DNA from: Bacteroidota bacterium
GTDB lineage: Bacteria; Bacteroidota; Bacteroidia; 2-12-FULL-35-15
Reading direction: 5' to 3'
DNA length: 64,000 bases
Assembly: GCA_025963725.1 (NCBI GenBank)
Contig: JAOQAE010000002.1
Span: forward strand, 445,221-509,220
Shown here one piece after another: positions 5,240 to 53,286 of the stretch (its first letter is position 1; each line of letters starts with the position of its first letter). The position numbers and the translations under genes were made by a program. The notes under the pieces were generated by a model. The model saw only the letters and a program-made list of their open reading frames with translations. It did no database searches and was not told the DNA's origin.

Positions 5240-6796
5240 TTAATTCATTTCTATGATCAGCATTTCGTATTCAAAGGGCTTAAAGGCAGCCTTCAATGCC
5301 GGGATCATCTCTTTTCCGTATTTTAAATAATAAGGTATAAAATTATCGTAACGCTCCTGGAGATTGCCTTCCGGGAAAAATTTTTCCTTGAGCTTGCGCA
5401 GCTGATTGATGCTTGTTTCCTGCTTTTGCTTTTCGGAGCGCAGCAGCCTGCTTTCAATATTTTTAATTCCGTTCAGGGTTTTCTGCAGCTCTGCTTCCAC
5501 TGTTCCTTTCAACGTAGGGTCCACCAGTGCTGCTTTTTCAGAAATGCCCGCATACAATAACGCGATCTTATCCTCCTGCTCCTTTAACGAGATCCCGCTT
5601 CCGGCAGCCCTGCTTATGAATTCTTTGATCAGCGCTTCAAGATCCTTAAAAGGGTCGTTCACCGCAAAACCGAATTTCTGAAGCTGCTGGTTTGTTTTTT
5701 CATCCGTGAGCATCGCGAAATTACGCGGTATGAGCACAGGGAATGTGATGCCGTGATGATCGAACATTGCCTTGTATTCGAACCAGTATGCAAACTCTCC
5801 CGGCCCGCCCACGTAGGCGATGTTCGGAAGAATGCGCTGCTGGTATAATGGGCGCAATACAACGTTCGGACTATACTCTTCCGGCTTAAGGCTCAACACT
5901 TCGGCAGAGGCCTGCTCGATGCGCACACGGTCGCTGCCCAGCCGGAATACATTGATCTCCCTCGGATTAACCTGCGCCTTATAACCGGCCTTTTCCAGCC
6001 CGGTTATAGTTGTATTTACAATTTTAAAATTCGTGTTATTGGAAATATCGTCCTTTATAATTTCGATGAACTCCTGCTTAAGGCGCGCATCATCCGGGTC
6101 GATGATCACCAGCCCGTATGCGCCAAAAAGCGCATGAACAAGATAGCGCGTTGCATCGGCAAGGTTCGGATGCTTCAAATAAGCATTATCGAAAAGTGTG
6201 ATCAGCTCTTTTGCATTTGCCGAATCGCCAAGGATAGTGCTCAGCTCTTCCAGCATTGCATTTAAGGAGGAAGTGCTTAATCTTCCCACGGCGCCTTTCG
6301 CTTCCGGGTTATCCCATGAAAGTTTTTTTCCGAACAGGTGGATGGAGCGGATCTCTTCAAAATCGTGATCCTCGGAAGCCATCCAGTATACCGGCACAAA
6401 GTTATTCTCCGGGTATTTTGCTTTCAGCTCCTCTGCAAGGTTAATGGTGGTGATGATCTTGTAAATAAAATACAGCGGCCCTGTGAACAGGCAAAGCTGG
6501 TGACCGGTGCAAACCGTAAAGGTTTTATTATCGGAAAGTAATTCGATGTTTGTATTTGTTGCCTGGAAATCCGCAAGCGGTGATTTGATCTTCGAATTGT
6601 ATTGCTCAAGGATCACTTCCTGCAGCAAAAGGCGGTTGAGAGGCCGGGAAGCGCGATGGGCCATGGCCTCCTTAAACGAACCGGCATGTGGCGCATAGGC
6701 ATAAAACTGATCCACTTTGCCTTCTATGTAATCGAGGAGCAGCTGTGGAAATTGACCTGTATCGGAAAGAGGTATGTTGGTCTTTTTGTATGGCAT
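5240..6796 (-). CDS. bshC: bacillithiol biosynthesis cysteine-adding enzyme BshC
   Basis: About 518 aa with a BshC-like N-terminus (LLLDYIEG) and length typical of the family. Confidence 0.65.
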   Translation of the reverse strand: MPYKKTNIPLSDTGQFPQLLLDYIEGKVDQFYAYAPHAGSFKEAMAHRASRPLNRLLLQEVILEQYNSKIKSPLADFQATNTNIELLSDNKTFTVCTGHQLCLFTGPLYFIYKIITTINLAEELKAKYPENNFVPVYWMASEDHDFEEIRSIHLFGKKLSWDNPEAKGAVGRLSTSSLNAMLEELSTILGDSANAKELITLFDNAYLKHPNLADATRYLVHALFGAYGLVIIDPDDARLKQEFIEIIKDDISNNTNFKIVNTTITGLEKAGYKAQVNPREINVFRLGSDRVRIEQASAEVLSLKPEEYSPNVVLRPLYQQRILPNIAYVGGPGEFAYWFEYKAMFDHHGITFPVLIPRNFAMLTDEKTNQQLQKFGFAVNDPFKDLEALIKEFISRAAGSGISLKEQEDKIALLYAGISEKAALVDPTLKGTVEAELQKTLNGIKNIESRLLRSEKQKQETSINQLRKLKEKFFPEGNLQERYDNFIPYYLKYGKEMIPALKAAFKPFEYEMLIIEMN

Positions 6797-6890
6797 AAAT
6801 ATTATGTAAAGATAACAATTTTGAAGGCATTTTGTTTAGGATAAAAAGTATGAATGCAATTAATTAACTTTGAAAAAAACGAGCTGAGCT

Positions 6891-7454
6891 ATGAGCGATG
6901 AACTGCATAAAAACCCCTGGACCACCTTAACATCAGAGCATATTTATGATTCGCCCTGGGTGAGCCTTACGAAGCATGATGTGCTCAACCCAAACGGGAA
7001 TCCCGGCACTTATTCCGTGGTGCATTTTAAAAATATTGCCATTGGCATATTGCCGCTCGATAAGGACAATAACACGTATATCGTAGGGCAATACCGCTAC
7101 CCGATCAATCAATATTCATGGGAGATCCCGGAAGGCGGCGGAAAGCTGGATGTTCCGCCCCTCGATTCGGCAAAGCGTGAATTGCATGAGGAAACAGGGA
7201 TCTCAGCGGGCAAATGGACAAAGATCCAGGAGATGCACCTGAGCAACTCGGCCAGCGATGAGTTCTGCATCCTTTATCTGGCGCAGGACCTGAGCTTTGG
7301 GGAATCGGAGCCGGAAGACGATGAGAAGCTGGAAGTGCGGAAGCTGCACTTCGATGAATTGTATAAAATAGTGGAGAACGGCGAAGTGACCGACAGCTTA
7401 ACTGTGGCCGCCGTGCTGAAAGTGAAGCTTATGATGATAGAGGGAAAATTGTGA
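6891..7454 (+). CDS. NUDIX hydrolase
   Basis: NUDIX box GGGKLDx7AKRELHEETGI. Confidence 0.75.
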   Translation: MSDELHKNPWTTLTSEHIYDSPWVSLTKHDVLNPNGNPGTYSVVHFKNIAIGILPLDKDNNTYIVGQYRYPINQYSWEIPEGGGKLDVPPLDSAKRELHEETGISAGKWTKIQEMHLSNSASDEFCILYLAQDLSFGESEPEDDEKLEVRKLHFDELYKIVENGEVTDSLTVAAVLKVKLMMIEGKL

Positions 7455-16336: not shown

Positions 16337-17656
16337 TTACTTTTCCTTCTTCCCCTTATACCCTTCATATCCTTTCAAAAAAGCCTGGTACAGCAGGTCT
16401 CCCTGGATCTGGTAGCCTTTGCCGCTGAAATGCACCTTGTCCTTGGCCGATAATTTTGCGGCGTACCACTTCGCCATGGAGCCGTAGCCGCCCATCACCT
16501 CATACAGGTCCCAGTATGCGAGATTATGATCGAGGGAATATTTGATGATCGCCTCGCGGGCCAGCTTCATGTCGGGATTTTTCACCCTGCCCTTCTTGCT
16601 CTTCCTGAACGAATCGCCGGGAGTGGTGAGTAAGATCGCAGTGTTGGGATTGGCATTCTTAAGGCTGGTGATAAGGGTATCGATATTGCGGTAAAAAAGC
16701 TCCTTGTCGAATCCCCCGTAAAATGCTTCATTCGTGCCCATCGAGATGATCACGAGGTCGGCATTCAAATACGAGAACTGCTGCAAAAAGTATTTCGACA
16801 TGTTGTAATGCCTGTATTCAGCGCCATTCACGCCGATCATATCGTAGAGCACGCCGGCGGAATCGTTCTCGAGCATCATCCCGTAAATGCGGGTGGAGTG
16901 CTGCATGGCAGTGTCGGCAGCCTTGTTCCGCAGGTAGATCTGGCGCATAGGCTTGCTGAACTTCAATTCGGAAACAAATGGATTTGCCGATTTATCGATC
17001 GGGCGGATGGTGCCGATCTCGCAGTTAAGGTCGTCGCATACGGTGAGCTCGTAATTGGAAGGGCCTTTTTCATGGAAGAGCGTAAACTTCGTAAAGCTGT
17101 ATCCGAGCTTTGGCTGGTCCTTCACCATGATGCTGATCTCCGCCACCGAATCCTTTGTTTCTACGGTAAAGCCTGAAATACCGATGGGCAGCGGCTTGTC
17201 ATAGAATACATTCCGCTTGGCATCCCAGGCAACATTGGTTACGGTTTTATAGCTGCTGGGCTCATTGCTTTTTGCAACACGGTACGGAAAGATCAATCCG
17301 CGGCCTGCATTCCCGAATTTCAGCTGCATCTTCTGCCGCACGCTGCCTGAAAGAATATCCGCCTGAATATGCGAATCGCCAATGTGCACAATGTTCACGC
17401 GTCCCTGCTTCGTTGTTTCGAGCTGGTACAACTTCTCATACACAAAAGCGAGCGAGCTGCTGTCGTTCTCAATTTTATTGAGGTCGGTGCGGATGAACTT
17501 GTACAGCTTGTAGGAAGCGCTGTCGACTGTTTGCGCCTTTGAATGAAAAGCAAAAGCAATGAGGGCGGCAATAGCTACCACACACTGCTTCCAGTACGAA
17601 GCAGGCTGAGCCATACGCGGGGCTGACCTTCTAATTATGCTTTTTGTTATAATCAC
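16337..17656 (-). CDS. SGNH/GDSL hydrolase family protein (AlgX/AlgJ/PatB-like O-acetyltransferase/esterase), secreted
   Basis: GDSH block (IVHIGDSHIQADI) and a second SGNH block; signal peptide; possible alternative start at 17614. Confidence 0.6.
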   Translation of the reverse strand: MIITKSIIRRSAPRMAQPASYWKQCVVAIAALIAFAFHSKAQTVDSASYKLYKFIRTDLNKIENDSSSLAFVYEKLYQLETTKQGRVNIVHIGDSHIQADILSGSVRQKMQLKFGNAGRGLIFPYRVAKSNEPSSYKTVTNVAWDAKRNVFYDKPLPIGISGFTVETKDSVAEISIMVKDQPKLGYSFTKFTLFHEKGPSNYELTVCDDLNCEIGTIRPIDKSANPFVSELKFSKPMRQIYLRNKAADTAMQHSTRIYGMMLENDSAGVLYDMIGVNGAEYRHYNMSKYFLQQFSYLNADLVIISMGTNEAFYGGFDKELFYRNIDTLITSLKNANPNTAILLTTPGDSFRKSKKGRVKNPDMKLAREAIIKYSLDHNLAYWDLYEVMGGYGSMAKWYAAKLSAKDKVHFSGKGYQIQGDLLYQAFLKGYEGYKGKKEK

Positions 17657-19022
17657 CGTATTCGCTCATTAATTTAGTGTACAATAATTTTCCAACCTTG
17701 TGGGCGCCCCTGAAATTGAAATGCGTGTAGTCCTTATTTGCAAGCACTGTATCGCCTTCCACCCATTTAACCATGGAACCTTCACCGCCCATGGCATCGT
17801 AGAGGCTCCAGTACGCGCAGCCGGTTTGCTCCGCCATTTTCCTCTGCACGTTCACCATCAGCGGAACGCTTGGATCGGTCTGGTAAACGCCATCCTTGCG
17901 GTAACCTTTATCGCCTACGCTGATGAGCAGGATGCTGGCATTGGGAAAGCTTGCCCTGATGTGCCTGATCACATTGAGCATGCCGCGCTCATACCAGGAA
18001 AAATCGGTAACATCCGGGCTTACGGCATTGAGGCCATATTCGAGTACTATTAAGTCGTAACCGAGGTATTGGTTTGTACCCGAATAAATGCTCTGCGGCA
18101 CTTTCACCAGCGGAAATCCGGAATTTCCACGGAATGAAAAATTATCGACAAAGGCGCCGCTGTCGCTTTCCATGCTTAAGCCGAAAATATCCATAGAGCT
18201 TGTGCATTGAAATTTCGCGCTCAGCGACTGCACGCCTTTTCCGTTATCGATCAGCACTTCGTTCACAGGCTCTTTTCCATCGAGCTTGTAATTATTATTG
18301 TTTACGGTCACCGAATTTGCGCCTTCGCTTTTGCCGTAAAGGATGCGTGTTTTATAGAAGCGGTCGAGATGCTTTTGCTTCACGGCAATATATTTCACCC
18401 AACTTTCATTCGCGGTATTGCTGGTATCGGCTTTGCCTGAAACCTGCGGCACAAAGCTGTAGCCGGAGATCCCGAGCACATGGTTCGCTGGCATATTCTC
18501 GAGGAGCGTGTGGGTGGTCCAGCCGCCAAACTGGTGCATTATACTGGTGCGGAAGCCTGCCACAATGGAAGTAATGGGCACAAACCCTACGCCCGCTCCG
18601 CCGAACACATCCTGCATTTCATTGCGCAGGTCCTGGGTGATGAGGTCGCCCTCGATCATGGAATCGCCGAAATAGGCAATGCGTACTTTTTTCTTTTTCT
18701 TAATTTCATTGAGCGCGCCGAAGAAGTGTGCGAGCGCGGAAGTGCTGTCATTCGGGAAATCAATGATGTTTGCAGGATCGGTTGTGCGGACCGCAACGGC
18801 GGTGCTGTCTTTCGCGATCACAGAATCATTCACCACTATAACCGACAACGGAAAGTTCTTCGCTTTTCCCTTGAGGATGATATCGCCGAGCGGATCCACT
18901 TTTTTTGTCTTATGGCCAAAGAGATTGAACTCGGTGCTGAATTGTGAAAGAACGAGCAATACAATGGTAACTGCAAGTACCATTATAAAAGGTTGGGAAT
19001 GCCTGTTTGTATTGTCGTTCAT
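17631..19022 (-). CDS. SGNH/GDSL hydrolase family protein (paralog), secreted
   Basis: GDS block (RIAYFGDSMIEGDL) and DxxH-like C-terminal block; TM/signal segment; adjacent to its paralog and to the MBOAT gene. Confidence 0.6.
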   Translation of the reverse strand: MNDNTNRHSQPFIMVLAVTIVLLVLSQFSTEFNLFGHKTKKVDPLGDIILKGKAKNFPLSVIVVNDSVIAKDSTAVAVRTTDPANIIDFPNDSTSALAHFFGALNEIKKKKKVRIAYFGDSMIEGDLITQDLRNEMQDVFGGAGVGFVPITSIVAGFRTSIMHQFGGWTTHTLLENMPANHVLGISGYSFVPQVSGKADTSNTANESWVKYIAVKQKHLDRFYKTRILYGKSEGANSVTVNNNNYKLDGKEPVNEVLIDNGKGVQSLSAKFQCTSSMDIFGLSMESDSGAFVDNFSFRGNSGFPLVKVPQSIYSGTNQYLGYDLIVLEYGLNAVSPDVTDFSWYERGMLNVIRHIRASFPNASILLISVGDKGYRKDGVYQTDPSVPLMVNVQRKMAEQTGCAYWSLYDAMGGEGSMVKWVEGDTVLANKDYTHFNFRGAHKVGKLLYTKLMSEYGDYNKKHN

Positions 19023-19197
19023 AGAGGCTGGAAAAGCGCTGCAAAGATAGTGTTTTGACAGCGCGGATGCAGCTGGTGATACAATAAATAAAAATCAATT
19101 ACCTCAGCCTCGCAATGATGTCAGAACTATTCATAAATTAAACTGTCATCCCGTGCTCCGACACGGGATCTGTTCAAAACAACCCTTTACCAAACCT

Positions 19198-19229
19198 GAG
19201 ATTGCTTCGCCGTACCTCCTCGCAATGAC
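19198..19229. repeat. 32-bp intergenic element GAGATTGCTTCGCCGTACCTCCTCGCAATGAC (copy 1 of 4)
   Basis: Near-identical copies at 38311-38342, 51025-51056 and 52381-52412. Confidence 0.8.
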
Positions 19230-19288: not shown

Positions 19289-20488
19289 TTAGTGCTTTGG
19301 CGCTCCGTCCTTCACATCCACCAGCTCCACATCAAATGTAAGGTCGGCTTTTGCGGGGATCATCGGCGGGCGGCCTGCTTCACCATACGCAAGCAGATAA
19401 GGGATCACGAGCCTAAGCTTGTCACCAACGTTCATCAGCGCAATGCCTTCTTCCCAGCCCTGGATCACGTATGCCTGGCCCAAAGGGAATTCGATCGGCT
19501 CACCGCGCTCAACCGATGAATCGAACATAGTTCCATCGGCAAGGTAACCGGAATAATGCACCTTTACCGTTTTACCGGCTTCGGCTTTCACGGTGCTTCC
19601 GCTTCTTTTTACTTCGTAATAGGTAATTCCGGATGCTGTTTTCTTCGCTTCCAGGCCTTTGATGTCATACGCCACCGGCGGGATCACCTTTTGCACATCC
19701 ACCATCTCCACATCGAAAATAATGTCGGCATTCGGCGGGATCGGGCCGCTGCCTTTTTCACCGAAAGCAAGCTTCGAAGGAATAATGATGCGGGCTTTTT
19801 CACCTTTATGCATGAGCGCGAGGCCTTCTTCAAGGCCTGCAAACAACTGCCCTTTGCCGATGTTCGCTTTCAGGGGCTGTCCGCGTTCGATGGATGAATC
19901 AAACATTTTTCCATCGAGCAGGAAAGCGCTGTAGTTCGCAACTACCTTAGTACCGCTTACTGCCTGCTCTCCCGACTTGTTTGCTTTCACAAGAATGTAC
20001 TGAAGGCCGCTTGCCGTTTTCACGGTATCTTTTCCTTTAGTATCGAAAGGCCTTACGCCTTCTATCACTTCTATCAGCTCCACATCGAAGATCAGCGGGG
20101 AGTTGGCGGGGATCTTGCCCATTGCGCGCTCTCCGTAACCCAGCTCGGGGCCAAACTTGATGGTGGCTTTATCGCCTTCCTGCAGCAGCTGGAATGCTTC
20201 ATCCCAGCCTTTGATCACCTGGCCTGCCCCAACTTTGAACTCGAAGGGCTGGCCTCTCTGTACAGAGCTGTCGAATATGGTATCGTTCAACAATTTGCCG
20301 GTATAATGCACTTTTACTTTATCGCCGGCCTGCGCTTTTTTACCATTTCCTTTGGAGGTAATGGTGTATTCTAATCCTGAAGCTGTTTTCACTGTTTTAG
20401 GCTTTTTTACTGGTACGCTTTTTATTTTTTCCTGGGCGTTCGCTCCGAAGGCCAGTATCACTAAAAGCGCGGTTACTATTCTTTTCAT
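19289..20488 (-). CDS. FKBP-type peptidyl-prolyl cis-trans isomerase, three tandem FKBP domains, secreted
   Basis: Three repeats of the FKBP signature (HYxGxLxDGxxFDSSxxRGxPxxF...GW...G....IP..LAYG); signal peptide. Confidence 0.85.
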   Translation of the reverse strand: MKRIVTALLVILAFGANAQEKIKSVPVKKPKTVKTASGLEYTITSKGNGKKAQAGDKVKVHYTGKLLNDTIFDSSVQRGQPFEFKVGAGQVIKGWDEAFQLLQEGDKATIKFGPELGYGERAMGKIPANSPLIFDVELIEVIEGVRPFDTKGKDTVKTASGLQYILVKANKSGEQAVSGTKVVANYSAFLLDGKMFDSSIERGQPLKANIGKGQLFAGLEEGLALMHKGEKARIIIPSKLAFGEKGSGPIPPNADIIFDVEMVDVQKVIPPVAYDIKGLEAKKTASGITYYEVKRSGSTVKAEAGKTVKVHYSGYLADGTMFDSSVERGEPIEFPLGQAYVIQGWEEGIALMNVGDKLRLVIPYLLAYGEAGRPPMIPAKADLTFDVELVDVKDGAPKH

Positions 20489-27778: not shown

Positions 27779-28007
27779 AACCGTGTAAGATAAGGCTGCA
27801 AAATTACGAATTTTACGGGCTGCCGGCTGTTAATAATTTTAATCTTTAAAATGCGCTGGTTTGTCTGGAAAAAACAACCACAAAACGATAAAAGTCGTGT
27901 TTCACAGTGTTTCCGGCAAAGAGTTCATCCACAATTGCAACTTAATTTAAACATCCTACGTCTTAATTTTATATATTGTTATCCGAAATTATTAGCTTTA
28001 GCTAACT

Positions 28008-38092: not shown

Positions 38093-38400
38093 TGGGGAGT
38101 TAGTAGCTGGTAGTTCGGAGATCGGAGATGGTTAACCTGATGATAGAAGTTTAAAATCAAGATTGGAATTATAAAACAGTGCAGTAACAATTCCCCTCTT
38201 GAGAGGGGTTAGGGGTGTGTCTATCGGAATCGCTCGACAAGCGCAGCCACACAGATTCGTAAATTCGTACAGATTCGCGATCCGTACACAAATTCGTAAA
38301 TTCGAAGAATGAGATTGCTTCGTCGTACCTCCTCGCAATGACGTTCCCGGAATGGCAATTAGAACAATTCGTATATTCGTAAAAATTAGTATTCGTAGTT
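38093..38400. repeat. composite intergenic repeat block: G-rich tract, GACGGTTAAC-like motif, GC hairpin CCCCTCTTGAGAGGGGTTAGGGGTGTGT (38193-38220), ATTCGTAA arrays and the 32-bp element (38311-38342)
   Basis: The same module order recurs at 52259-52488 and partly at 50829-51133 and 53053-53286. Confidence 0.8.
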
Positions 38401-38892
38401 ATGGCTTCATTCGATATTGTAAACAAAGTAGATGCGCAATTGCTGGACAATGCCATCAATGTGGCGCGCAAGGAGATCCTGAACAGGTTTGACTTTCACG
38501 GCTCCAAAAGCGAGATCAATTATGACAAGAAAAACCTGAGCCTGCAGATCCTCACGGAAAATGAGATGCGGCTGGAGGCGATCACCGATGCGATCCGCTC
38601 GAGGATGATCAAGCAGCACCTGAACCCGCTTTGCCTCGATATGGGCAAGGAAACCGCAGCATCGGGAAATATGATCCGGAAAGAGATAAAAGTGCGTGAA
38701 GGGATCGACAAGGAGGTTGCGAAGAAGATCGTGAAGGATATAAAAGATTCAAAGCTGAAGGTACAGGCTTCCATCATGGAGGACCAGGTACGGGTTACAG
38801 CCAAAAAGATCGACGACCTGCAGGCGGTGATCTCACTCATGAGACAAGGCAGCTATGACCTGCCGCTGCAGTTCGTGAATATGAAGAGCTGA
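38401..38892 (+). CDS. yajQ: YajQ family cyclic-di-GMP-binding protein (UPF0234)
   Basis: MASFDIVNKVD...RFDFHGSKSEI N-terminal signature; 163 aa. Confidence 0.8.
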   Translation: MASFDIVNKVDAQLLDNAINVARKEILNRFDFHGSKSEINYDKKNLSLQILTENEMRLEAITDAIRSRMIKQHLNPLCLDMGKETAASGNMIRKEIKVREGIDKEVAKKIVKDIKDSKLKVQASIMEDQVRVTAKKIDDLQAVISLMRQGSYDLPLQFVNMKS

Positions 38893-46221: not shown

Positions 46222-46356
46222 GCTGCTAATTACGAATCTATACGAATTTACGAATTGTACTAATTATCATTCTCACTGGATGTCATCCTGAGCGAAGCGA
46301 ATGGATCTTTCCAAACAACCTCCCCGAACTCCTAACGTCTCCCTCCTATCTAACAG

Positions 46357-50828: not shown

Positions 50829-50850
50829 TTCGTAGTTGGGCTGCATAGCG

Positions 50851-50950
50851 TCAGTTCGTCCCGATACTATCGGGAAGCAAGGCACGAGCATATCGAGAAC
50901 AAGCGCACGCACTTTCTCGATACTCTCCCTTCGGTCGAACTCGAAATGAC
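50851..50950. repeat. miniature TIR element copy (GTCAGTTCG...ACTCGAAATGAC)
   Basis: Shares core cactttctcgatactctcccttcggtcgaactcgaaatgac with 53130-53170. Confidence 0.7.
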
Positions 50951-51024
50951 GGCACACTGATCCAATTCGCAGATTCGTAAAAATTCGTAATTCGTAATTA
51001 GTATAAATTCGTAATTAGTAGAGT

Positions 51025-51056
51025 GAGATTGCTTTGTCGTACCTCCTCGCAATGAC
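51025..51056. repeat. 32-bp element GAGATTGCTTTGTCGTACCTCCTCGCAATGAC (copy 3) embedded in ATTCGTAA arrays
   Basis: One mismatch relative to the other copies. Confidence 0.8.
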
Positions 51057-51133
51057 GTTCAATTCGTAGATTGGTAAAGATTCGTAATTCGCAAATTAGT
51101 ATAGATTCGTAATTAGTAGATCGTAAATTAGTA

Positions 51134-52258
51134 ATGAATATAGGATTTGACGCAAAAAGAGCTTATTTGAATACCAGCGGGCTTGGCAATTATGCGAGGA
51201 CGCTGATCAAATCATTGAATGAATATTACCCTGAGAATACCTACTCGCTTTTCACCACAAGGCTTACCGACAATGATTTTCAGAAGCAGGCCGCAGCCTT
51301 CAGCAATATACATGTGTATGAGCCGCAAAGCTTTATCGATAAAAAGCTGCGCTCCCGCTGGCGCTCATACGGGATCACCAACGTTTTAAAGGAACAGTCC
51401 GTTAATGTGTATCACGGACTGAGCAATGAGCTGCCTTTTAATATCGATGAATTCAAAGGGAAAAAGATCGTTACTATTCATGATCTCATCTTCGTCCGTT
51501 ACCCGAAATTATATCCTTACCTCGACCGGAAGATCTACAATAAGAAATTCCGTCATGCCTGCGATGTGGCTGATACCATCATCGCCATCAGCGAGGAGAC
51601 CAAGCGCGACATTGAAAAATATTATTTCGTCCCTGAGAATAAAATAAAAGTGATCTACCAGAGCTGTGATGAAGCTTTTTACAAAGACTATTCCGCCGGG
51701 GAATCAAAAAGCATTGCGGAATCATACCAGCTGCCGGCCAATTTTTTATTGTACGTGGGCACCATCGAGGAGCGCAAAAATTTATTGTCGATTGTAAAGG
51801 CCCTGAAGCAGGTGAAGGACATTCCGCTCGTAGTGATCGGGAAAAAGAAAAGCTATTTTGAAAAGGTAAAGGACTTCATTGAAAAAAACCAGCTGACGGA
51901 GCGGGTCATTTTTCTGGAGAATGTAGACAACAACCATTTGCCGGTGATCTACCGCATGGCATCGGTCTTTATTTTCCCTTCTCTTTTTGAAGGCTTCGGC
52001 ATTCCGATCATCGAAGCGCTGGTAAGCAGAACGCCGGTGATCACATCGAAGGGCGGCTGCTTCCCCGAAGCCGGCGGCCCCGGTTCACTGTACATCGATC
52101 CGCTGAATGAAAATGAGCTGGCTGAAAAGATCAACCTGCTGCTGGGCTCGGAACAGCTCCGGAAGGAGATCGCGGAAAAAGGGATTGAATATGCAAAACG
52201 CTTTCACCCGAAAGTGGTGACTTCGCAAATGATGGAGGTTTATAAAGGGAGCTTGTAG
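51134..52258 (+). CDS. glycosyltransferase family 4 (GT1-group)
   Basis: GT4 C-terminal E-x7-E region (FIFPSLFEGFGIPIIEALVSRTPVI). Confidence 0.8.
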   Translation: MNIGFDAKRAYLNTSGLGNYARTLIKSLNEYYPENTYSLFTTRLTDNDFQKQAAAFSNIHVYEPQSFIDKKLRSRWRSYGITNVLKEQSVNVYHGLSNELPFNIDEFKGKKIVTIHDLIFVRYPKLYPYLDRKIYNKKFRHACDVADTIIAISEETKRDIEKYYFVPENKIKVIYQSCDEAFYKDYSAGESKSIAESYQLPANFLLYVGTIEERKNLLSIVKALKQVKDIPLVVIGKKKSYFEKVKDFIEKNQLTERVIFLENVDNNHLPVIYRMASVFIFPSLFEGFGIPIIEALVSRTPVITSKGGCFPEAGGPGSLYIDPLNENELAEKINLLLGSEQLRKEIAEKGIEYAKRFHPKVVTSQMMEVYKGSL

Positions 52259-52488
52259 TTGGGAGGTAGGAGTTGGGAGTTGGGAGGTAGGAGTTGGGAG
52301 TTGGGAGTTGGCAGACGGTTAACGTGATGATTATTACAACTATTCGTAATTCGTACATTCGTAAAGATTCGTAATTAGCAGGGATTGCTTCGTCGTACCT
52401 CCTCGCAATGACGTTCAATTCGTAATTCGTAGATTCGTAAAAAATTCGTATTTCGTAAATTAGTATAGATTCGTAATTCGTAGCTACT
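52259..52488. repeat. composite intergenic repeat block: (GGAGTTGGGAG)n G-tract, GACGGTTAACGTGATGATTATT, ATTCGTAA arrays and the 32-bp element (52381-52412)
   Basis: Starts at the first base after the GT4 stop codon; same organisation as 38093-38400. Confidence 0.8.
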
Positions 52489-53052
52489 ATGGAGGAAGAA
52501 ATAAAAAATGCGCTTGAAGTGCTTCGCAAAGGAGGCACCATCCTCTACCCTACCGATACGGTTTGGGGCATTGGCTGTGATGCGCGGAACAAGGATGCAG
52601 TAGCGAAAGTATTTAAGATCAAGCAGCGGGCCGAATACAAAAGCATGGTCACGCTCGTTTGCGATAACACCATGCTGAACCGCCATGTGAAGGAAGTCCC
52701 GGAAGTGGCCTGGGACCTGATAGAAGCTGCCGACAGGCCCCTCACAATTATTTATCCCGGTGCGCGCATGCTTGCCGAGAACGTGATCGCAGCTGACGGA
52801 AGTGTTGGTATACGGATGGTACAGGATGAGTTTTGCAAAAACCTGATCCATAAGTTCGGGAAGCCCATCGTTTCAACTTCCGCAAATATCAGCGGCGAGG
52901 AAGCGCCTTCCTCCTTCAACGAGATCAAGATCGACATTTTGAATAACGTGGATTACATTGTAAATTTACGCAGGAATGATAACAGCAGCATTCAGCCATC
53001 TACGATCATCAAAGTAGCGATGAACGGGGAATTCAAGATCATCAGGAAGTAG
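52489..53052 (+). CDS. TsaC/YrdC-family L-threonylcarbamoyladenylate synthase paralog (187 aa)
   Basis: ILYPTDTVWGIGCD motif; the second YrdC-fold gene in the window. Confidence 0.7.
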   Translation: MEEEIKNALEVLRKGGTILYPTDTVWGIGCDARNKDAVAKVFKIKQRAEYKSMVTLVCDNTMLNRHVKEVPEVAWDLIEAADRPLTIIYPGARMLAENVIAADGSVGIRMVQDEFCKNLIHKFGKPIVSTSANISGEEAPSSFNEIKIDILNNVDYIVNLRRNDNSSIQPSTIIKVAMNGEFKIIRK

Positions 53053-53078
53053 TTGGGGAGTTAGGAGTTGGGAGTTTT

Positions 53079-53170
53079 CATAGCGTCAGTTCGAGTAGCG
53101 AGGCACGAGCGTATCGAGAACAAGCTCACACACTTTCTCGATACTCTCCCTTCGGTCGAACTCGAAATGA
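53079..53170. repeat. miniature TIR element copy (GTCAGTTCGAGT...ACTCGAAATGAC), preceded by a G-rich tract at 53053-53076
   Basis: Perfect 12-bp TIR; core identical to 50910-50950. Confidence 0.75.
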
Positions 53171-53286
53171 CCAGCACACCGATTAGCATTTCGCCCAGGA
53201 TGAGAGTGCAGTTCGTAATTCGTATATTCGTAACAATTCGTATTTCGAAGATAGATTAGTAATTCATATAAATTCGTATCCGTACC

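Follow-up and report, generated by a model that had tools for sequence, protein, structure and literature searches.

The 32-bp element that recurs in the window, by which we mean the whole 64-kb stretch of DNA analyzed, is a real repeat found across bacterial phyla; it is not a site of local regulation, nor is it a small RNA. By analogy with the SsnA nuclease and its target, it is likely to represent an ATTGC-type arm of the CGTC-REP/Ssn-related repeat family, which would serve as the cognate single-stranded DNA (ssDNA) site of an Ssn-like nuclease and spread in a REP- or MITE-like manner.

A mismatch search of the window, allowing up to three mismatches, retrieved exactly four matches, all on the + strand and each with no or one mismatch, versus none in 100 dinucleotide-preserving shuffles; the window holds no further match at this threshold. 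The search and the shuffles bear out the initial annotation, which had reported four copies at 19198, 38311, 51025 and 52381 with at most one mismatch, and the inverted pentamer ATTGC...GCAAT that it described is present in the copies. Read on the minus strand, which we call the tag strand, the element has the form (C/T)GTC-ATTGC-GAGGAGGTACGACGAA-GCAAT-C-T. The copies and the related repeats near copy 1 are the following.

Element, tag strand (minus strand): CGTCATTGCGAGGAGGTACGACGAAGCAATCT.
19198-19229, tag strand (-): copy 1, one mismatch, GGTC-ATTGC-GAGGAGGTACGGCGAA-GCAAT-CTC.
38311-38342, tag strand (-): copy 2, no mismatch (identical to the consensus), CGTC tag, 59 nt upstream of yajQ (38401-38892).
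51025-51056, tag strand (-): copy 3, one mismatch (G23>A), CGTC tag.
52381-52412, tag strand (-): copy 4, one mismatch, CGTC tag.
19144-19173, + strand: TGTCATCCCGTGCTCCGACACGGGATCTGT, with an 8-bp stem (DNA z = -3.7).
19100-19118, + strand: TACCTCAGCCTCGCAATGA, a decayed partial copy corresponding to the tag-proximal half of the element.

Copy 1 carries a single substitution (A21>G in tag-strand numbering) and the tag GGTC in place of YGTC. It is located between two minus-strand genes, with the terminator-like hairpin of 19289-20488 on one side and the start of 17631-19022 on the other, and it adjoins another tagged hairpin repeat (19144-19173). Copy 1 and this repeat form a tags-outward hybrid doublet with a spacer of 24-28 nt, depending on the motif ends chosen, and copy 1 is alone among the four in forming such a (hybrid) dimer. 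The partner is the sole window match to the published search pattern for Ssn-related motifs (SRMs), so that the window inventory consists of solo arms plus one hybrid doublet with a canonical motif. Copy 3 lies 78 nt upstream of a GT4 glycosyltransferase gene (51134-52258), and copy 4 lies 123 nt downstream of the same gene and 77 nt upstream of a Sua5/YrdC-family gene (52489-53052); copies 3 and 4 are thus direct repeats bracketing the glycosyltransferase gene. Alignment of the four window regions reveals a sharply conserved block, (A/G)GATTGC...GCAATGAC plus G, which is slightly longer than reported in the initial annotation and is followed by GTTC in three of the four copies.

Copies 3 and 4 have about 12 nt of additional flank in common on each side and are 1.3 kb apart, as might be expected of a chance match or a purely local duplication, an outcome that the initial annotation had linked to absence of the element from the rest of the genome and from relatives. 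The motif search instead detected it in relatives and, as an exact 29-mer, in more than 118 stretches of other genomes, in a scan with one genome per species. With no copy in the shuffles, the 29-mer in these other genomes and copy 2 shared by relatives at an orthologous site (see below), chance or local duplication is refuted, and we give it next to no credence. Bacteroidota hosts form the majority among the matches listed and include Pedobacter, Mucilaginibacter, Sphingobacterium, Saprospiraceae, Flavobacterium, Prolixibacteraceae, Prevotellaceae, Segetibacter and Hymenobacter. The exact 29-mer is also carried by Cyanobacteria, CPR lineages and Proteobacteria, on chromosomes or long contigs. 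Phages are no obvious vector, since 2.9 million viral contigs yielded two matches. A literature search with the sequence string returned unrelated primer matches only.

Comparison of the copies from these genomes defines the motif frame. At the flank positions not forced by the search (131 copies), the tag-side position is C in 96% of copies, which corresponds to the G of GTC on the tag strand. One position further out, G (65%) or A (29%) gives a CGTC or TGTC tag, C and T together accounting for 94%. The opposite, tail-side flank is A in 83%, so that the tail on the tag strand reads C-T, and the C following the palindrome is invariant in 50 near-variants. The family frame can therefore be written as YGTC-ATTGCGA...GAAGCAAT-C. 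An inverted family partner of the form GTCATTGCGA...GCAATC is found 3-55 nt upstream of 65 of 136 exact copies (48%), with the tags pointing outward. These 65 partners comprise 45 different sequences, and the exact arm is usually the right-hand member of the resulting heterodimers. The interiors of the partners are mostly small hairpins with compensatory changes (GCGAAGC, ACGCAGT, GTGAAAC, GCCGCCGCAGCGGC), while the GCGA...GAAGC frame is kept throughout the family.

As DNA, the doublet folds into a long hairpin of -30.1 kcal/mol (z = -11.7). The solo element has five Watson-Crick pairs around a 16-nt interior, and neither the solo copy nor the pentamer stem has a significant fold with standard parameters (DNA z = 0.03, 0.86; RNA z = 0.23, -0.04). 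The interior could be organized by two tandem 5'-GA/5'-GA steps, pairing positions 10-11 with 23-24 and 13-14 with 20-21, which would be separated by the G:C pairs 12-22 and 15-19, with A25 bulged and G16-N17-A18 forming the triloop. We infer this G.A-stabilized fold from the pattern of variation and from the stability that GNA triloops and tandem sheared G.A pairs are known to have in DNA. In 38 of the 50 near-variants, which the search pattern does not force, the middle base of the triloop is changed (N17 to C in 27, A in 10, and G in 1), against 0-8 changes at each of the other interior positions. This concentration of variation at N17 fits the G-N-A triloop model.

The genomic placement of the element was assessed with intergenic classes derived from crude ORF calls, using element-free regions of the same loci as the comparison set. 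The 91 element-bearing intergenic regions are convergent in 41 cases, tandem in 44 and divergent in 6, compared to 50 convergent, 312 tandem and 83 divergent element-free regions (chi-square 62.9, p = 2e-14). In tandem regions, the element is oriented at random with respect to transcription, 25 copies being sense and 26 antisense. Orientation relative to GC skew is not significantly biased either (41 vs 54), which makes the shared + strand of all four window copies uninformative. In Rfam, the window has no matches above the gathering threshold, and no relevant matches by E-value are seen around copies 3 and 4. Together, the placement, the random orientation and the lack of an Rfam match speak against both a promoter operator and a strand-specific RNA.

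The small RNA proposed in the initial annotation can be considered together with other RNA-level roles, such as an mRNA 3' stabilizer, a terminator-like hairpin or a 5'-UTR element. Doublets fold as RNA into very stable hairpins (-42.6 kcal/mol, z = -10.4), convergent regions show an enrichment of the element at the 3' ends of genes, and copies 2-4 are sense-oriented, 59-78 nt upstream of + strand genes; Di Nocera et al. also argue that many REPs are transcribed (PMC3733652). However, solo copies, the form present in the window, have RNA z values of about 0, copies are oriented at random relative to their flanking genes, Rfam offers no counterpart, and SsnA is inactive on RNA (PMC11893778). 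The small RNA proposal is thus not supported, and a role at the RNA level is unlikely in general; any RNA effect would be a side effect and not the reason for the conservation of the sequence.

The turnover of the element among relatives bears on a second possibility, a duplex operator through which a transcription factor would control yajQ, the glycosyltransferase gene and the Sua5-family gene as a regulon. The gene order dapD - GT4 glycosyltransferase - Sua5/YrdC is kept in relatives, with glycosyltransferases 89%, 82% and 80% identical, and the element is absent from the sites orthologous to copies 3 and 4 in all three (L120, L122 and L123), which have shorter spacers or other small hairpin insertions. 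In the spacer between the DDAH gene and yajQ, relatives with 98% and 96% identical YajQ carry the element at the same position, where it is identical in two loci (L127 and L128) and has two substitutions in two others (L129 and L130); it is absent in a more distant relative (L131, YajQ 92% identical). Between the window and the relative with 98% identical YajQ, the element block is identical at 38 of 38 positions, and the next 58 nt differ at about 13. The copy at the yajQ site was already in place before three lineages split, and in two relatives it has changed less than its flanks, either through selection or through conversion between copies. This conservation is compatible with an operator, as is the fact that three of the four copies in the window precede start codons by 59-78 nt. 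On the other hand, only 6 of the 91 element-bearing intergenic regions across genomes are divergent, the element is missing upstream of the orthologous glycosyltransferase and Sua5 genes in the three relatives, the 29-mer is identical in several phyla beside unrelated genes, and copy 1 is oriented opposite to its downstream gene. We therefore regard an operator as very improbable.

Since its presence varies at orthologous sites, the element is gained or lost over periods comparable to those in which species diverge. The initial suggestion of a recently spreading element is consistent with these gains and losses between close relatives, although it does not describe the yajQ copy, which is older than the three-lineage split and outconserves its surroundings.

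The closest known parallel is the NTS, a dRS3-containing repeat (CGTCATTCCCGCGMAVGCGGGAATCYRG) identified as the cognate site of SsnA (Chenal 2025, Nat Commun, PMC11893778). SsnA is a 94-aa single-domain GIY-YIG nuclease (CDD cd10448) with the catalytic residues Y6, Y17 and E64, which were mutated in that study. It binds the repeat only as ssDNA and on one strand only, and its cut falls a few nucleotides upstream; cleavage depends most on the three bases that precede the palindrome on its 5' side, and binding on the C that directly follows it (PMC11893778). The genes encoding such nucleases (ssn) are typically flanked by SRMs, and 81% of genomes with >200 SRMs encode one (PMC11893778). The element resembles the NTS in several respects. 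Its CGTC-ATT...AAT-C matches CGTCATTCCCGCG..GCGGGAATC of the NTS, with a YGTC tag, AT(T) arms and a C after the palindrome, and the oriented motif is present, with GTC 5' and C 3' of the palindrome. Its copies are mostly intergenic, clusters and doublets are common, and copies 3 and 4 around the glycosyltransferase gene resemble the NTS-gene-NTS arrangement discussed for Neisseria.

The second parallel is the family of CGTC-tagged REPs, divided into CGTC-1 to CGTC-4, of which Neisseria dRS3 represents CGTC-1 (Di Nocera, De Gregorio and Rocco 2013, BMC Genomics, PMC3733652). These repeats have an unpaired CGTC/TGTC (or CCTC) tag, a stem started by an A-T pair and a short tail; inverted dimers predominate, their intergenic location is convergent or unidirectional, and no transposase is known for them (PMC3733652). 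The element shares with them the unpaired CGTC/TGTC tag, the stem starting with A-T pairs and the short unpaired tail. Further common features are the abundance of inverted dimers, hetero- and hybrid dimers among them, with spacers of 20-100 bp, the preference for convergent and unidirectional intergenic regions, and the occurrence in mosaic intergenic regions mixing repeat families. It differs in its stem and loop (5 bp and 16 nt, compared to the described 8-9 bp and 4-5 nt) and in its tail, CTN instead of CCA. It also differs in that PMC3733652 found no associated enzyme, whereas a GIY-YIG gene is associated with the ATTGC family.

This association was examined from both sides. Three small GIY-YIG ORFs noticed in the loci served to build an HMM, which was run on the 118 element-selected loci among the matches listed; eight of these loci contain small GIY-YIG ORFs. 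Repeats of the ATTGC family directly flank seven of the eight genes, six on both sides, and the exact 30-mer is among these repeats; the eighth (L096) is flanked by a different tagged repeat, GTCATTTCGA... The genes beside the element are only about 50% identical to each other, so the exact arm does not follow one enzyme lineage. From the protein side, 80 metagenomic loci encoding relatives of the GIY-YIG protein were searched for repeats. The ATTGC family is found within 300 nt of the gene in 54 of these loci, on both sides in 38, and some GTC-AT..AT-C element occurs in 71. The repeat density is 4.7 per kb near the gene versus 0.41 per kb further away. Upstream repeats are mostly oriented with the gene and downstream repeats mostly against it, which places the tags mainly outward. 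The exact 30-mer adjoins the gene in none of the 80 loci.

The neighboring proteins are about 95 aa long, with GIY-YIG as their only Pfam domain. An NCBIfam search of the GIY-YIG protein gave a weak match, below cutoff, to a group I intron endonuclease model, and a PDB sequence search gave a distant one, to the UPF0213 structure 1zg2 (E = 1.7e-7). A tblastn search against PLSDB, which through a curation error includes whole N. gonorrhoeae chromosomes (2.17 Mb) labeled as plasmids (for example L212, NZ_CP119140.1), returned one match per gonococcal genome (51% identity, E = 1e-18). The gonococcal ORF encodes 94 aa, has Y6, Y17 and E64 and is flanked by NTS copies, and we thus identify it as the SsnA orthologue. 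Direct comparison with this ORF gave 44% identity over 91 residues and an hhalign probability of 99.7%. The neighboring proteins are 44-51% identical to the orthologue over their full length, with Y6, Y17 and E64 conserved, and the likeness to the SRM/NTS system extends to a gene of the same type, often bracketed by the repeats on both sides. Other tblastn matches are on replicons of Sinorhizobium, Azospirillum, Novosphingobium and Sphingobium, and several of these four genera are among the CGTC-repeat hosts named in PMC3733652 and PMC11893778. The HMM detected no ssn homologue in the window (64 kb) or across some 80 kb of relatives' loci (L119-L131).

Ssn homologues beside the element include those at L021 6862-7317, L066 2474-2857 and L022 5885-6193. 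Some loci show particular arrangements. In a Saprospiraceae MAG (L021, 6398-7740), an ssn-like gene is located amid ten copies of the 30-mer, including GTA and GCA triloop variants, which form two near-identical blocks, one on each side of the gene; this layout suggests a tandem duplication of the whole cassette. Exact copies also occur inside long ORFs (L087 around 3686, in a 1131-aa ORF; L034 around 1709; L060 around 1834), and they may be in-frame intragenic insertions (translation EIASSYLLAMT), as reported for other REPs.

The element also departs from the SRM/NTS system. It has five Watson-Crick pairs and a 16-nt interior, apparently held by G.A pairs and a GNA triloop, compared to the 8-bp stem and 3-4 nt loop of the NTS. 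Its hosts are mainly Bacteroidota, which are not mentioned in the main text of PMC11893778, and the window contains solo arms and no ssn gene. Moreover, the published SRM pattern, HGTCWYN(0-2)YYVSBRHN(0-5)WNVSBRGN(0-2)RNCYNB (PMC11893778), matches the NTS and the repeat at 19144-19173, but neither the element nor its 24-nt relative, and it has no match near the gene in any of the 80 ssn-relative loci. It is therefore unfit as a membership test for the ATTGC branch.

Mobilization of a REP/REPIN by a RAYT (Y1/HUH tyrosine transposase), with doublets as the replicative unit and the window copies as decayed singlets, would account for part of the pattern. Like REPs and REPINs, the family consists of short repeats, with inverted doublets forming long hairpins, variable doublet spacers and many singlets; it prefers convergent and tandem intergenic regions, and it accompanies a single gene for an ssDNA-acting enzyme flanked by repeats. 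RAYT subclasses 2.4 and 2.6 also occur in Bacteroidetes (PMC6006769). However, REPINs are GTAG-tagged and depend on an HUH/Y1 transposase, whereas the tag here is YGTC and the associated gene encodes a GIY-YIG nuclease. REPINs are lineage-specific and vertically inherited, whereas the exact 29-mer is common to several phyla. CGTC repeats were reported without an associated transposase (PMC3733652), and the orientation of the element shows no significant bias relative to GC skew. A regex scan of the 118 loci listed found a single RAYT-like ORF (L032). It lies at a distance of 4.6 kb from the element, and the palindrome that flanks and interrupts it is a different one, of the GTAG type. RAYT mobilization is accordingly improbable. 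In L032, from a Magasanikbacteria MAG (6480-7250), the RAYT-like gene (NHVH ... YIINNP) contains an in-frame GNGGG repeat insertion, and the palindrome gtagagacgcagcaatgctgcgtctac is present both upstream of and inside the gene.

Small dispersed repeats (SDRs) of 21-27 nt were reportedly described in heterocystous cyanobacteria by Elhai et al. (2008, in Genome Res), and are said to appear inserted into other repeats, including tandem heptamer arrays. We know of no enzyme associated with SDRs, and regard the resemblance to the element as a lead only.

The comparisons favor the reading of the element as an arm of an Ssn-related repeat, for which we propose the following mechanism. ATTGC-type repeats normally form tags-outward doublets and bracket genes for small single-domain GIY-YIG nucleases of the Ssn type, and such tagged hairpin repeats are probably cut as ssDNA by the nucleases that they surround. 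By analogy with NTS and SsnA, the minus strand of each window copy, once single-stranded at a replication fork, in incoming transforming or conjugative DNA or in repair intermediates, would fold into a hairpin with five Watson-Crick pairs, two tandem sheared G.A steps parted by G:C pairs, and a G-N-A triloop. This hairpin may then be bound by an Ssn-like nuclease whose gene lies elsewhere in the genome. The predicted nick is a few nucleotides away from the GTC tag on its 5' side, which in + coordinates is just to the right of 19229, 38342, 51056 and 52412. The outcome may be modulated recombination of ssDNA spanning the sites, propagation of the repeats as REP/MITE-like non-autonomous elements, or both. 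The protein-binding site proposed in the initial annotation would be retained in this form: the family brackets Ssn-type GIY-YIG genes and is most likely a recognition site, but putatively one in ssDNA and not a duplex operator.

More tentatively, the ATTGC repeats and the ssn gene could constitute an active, horizontally transferring mobile system, a view to which we attach modest weight. The autonomous unit would be [doublet]-ssn-[doublet], gene-less doublets would be MITE-like derivatives and solo arms footprints, and the driver would be a GIY-YIG ssDNA nuclease instead of an HUH or DDE enzyme. Such a system would explain how a letter-identical 30-nt arm comes to be present in Bacteroidota, Cyanobacteria, CPR lineages and Proteobacteria with varying flanks and partner arms.

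The element was initially described as always embedded in ATTCGTAA-type arrays. The ATTCGTAA motif is indeed over-represented in the window, with 21 exact matches compared to 1.9 expected, and related arrays surround copies 2-4 as follows.

50964-51133, + strand: AATTCGT-type period-7/8 arrays on both sides of copy 3 (context, not part of the element).
52342-52364 and 52417-52483: AATTCGT-type arrays around copy 4.
About 38250-38305 and 38366-38396: AATTCGT-like units around copy 2.

TRF detected AATTCGT arrays with a period of 7 flanking copies 3 and 4 on either side, while the units around copy 2 are below its threshold and were recognized by exact matches and by eye. The description thus holds for copies 2-4 but not for copy 1 (19198), which has no ATTCGTAA-type array around it. 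AATTCGT arrays also occur without the element in the window (46226-46267 on the minus strand and 53212-53233), and upstream of orthologous genes in relatives that lack it. They are therefore a trait of the gene-upstream regions of the lineage and not a part of the element. The AATTCGT(A) arrays, with a period of 7 or 8, lie just 5' of start codons and are oriented with the genes, at the two element-free sites as well as at 27804 (-) and 34274. They are also seen in the intergenic regions of L120-L131, with or without the 32-bp element, and relatives retain a 'ATTCGTATATTCGT' motif 25-45 nt before the ATG. The Bacteroidota -7 box has the consensus TAnnTTTG, and the arrays look like reiterated promoter modules resembling this box.

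Other repeats are found in the same intergenic regions. AGTTGGG-type heptamer arrays start directly after stop codons (52257-52311, 53053-53076 and 38093-38129), and a conserved GAYGGTTAACSTGATGAT motif follows such arrays at 38127-38144 and 52314-52331, as it does at the same place in two relatives (L120 and L122). A second tagged family is represented by two tags-outward doublets of about 100 nt, at 50850-50950 and 53085-53171 (GTCAGTTCG...CTCGAAATGAC), the former with an additional small hairpin (tcccgatactatcggga); the repeat flanking the GIY-YIG gene in L096 is related to this family. More short hairpin repeats are present at 46282-46307 (+), 13995 (-) and 38193-38208 (GTCATCCTGAGCGAAGCGAATGGATC, TGTCATGCTGAGCGGAGCCGAAGCATC and the palindrome CCCCTCTTGAGAGGGG). 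Several repeat families are thus intermingled in the intergenic regions of the window, a mosaic structure also described for Neisseria.

Ssn nucleases, the first site-specific nucleases that cut ssDNA only, entered the literature as recently as 2025, and the few enzyme-motif pairs known are all from Proteobacteria. The findings in the window point to a large branch of the Ssn system that is carried mostly by Bacteroidota. Its putative cognate repeat escapes the published search pattern, and its recognition structure appears to be based on sheared G.A pairs and a GNA triloop instead of a long Watson-Crick stem. This branch offers new candidate specificities for ssDNA tools, as well as an annotation rule for thousands of mini-ORFs and intergenic repeats regarded as 'junk' in environmental genomes, and its letter-identical arms across phyla provide a test case for repeat mobility. 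Within the window, the copies are dispersed repeats of a kind already described and not local regulators of yajQ or of the glycosyltransferase gene.
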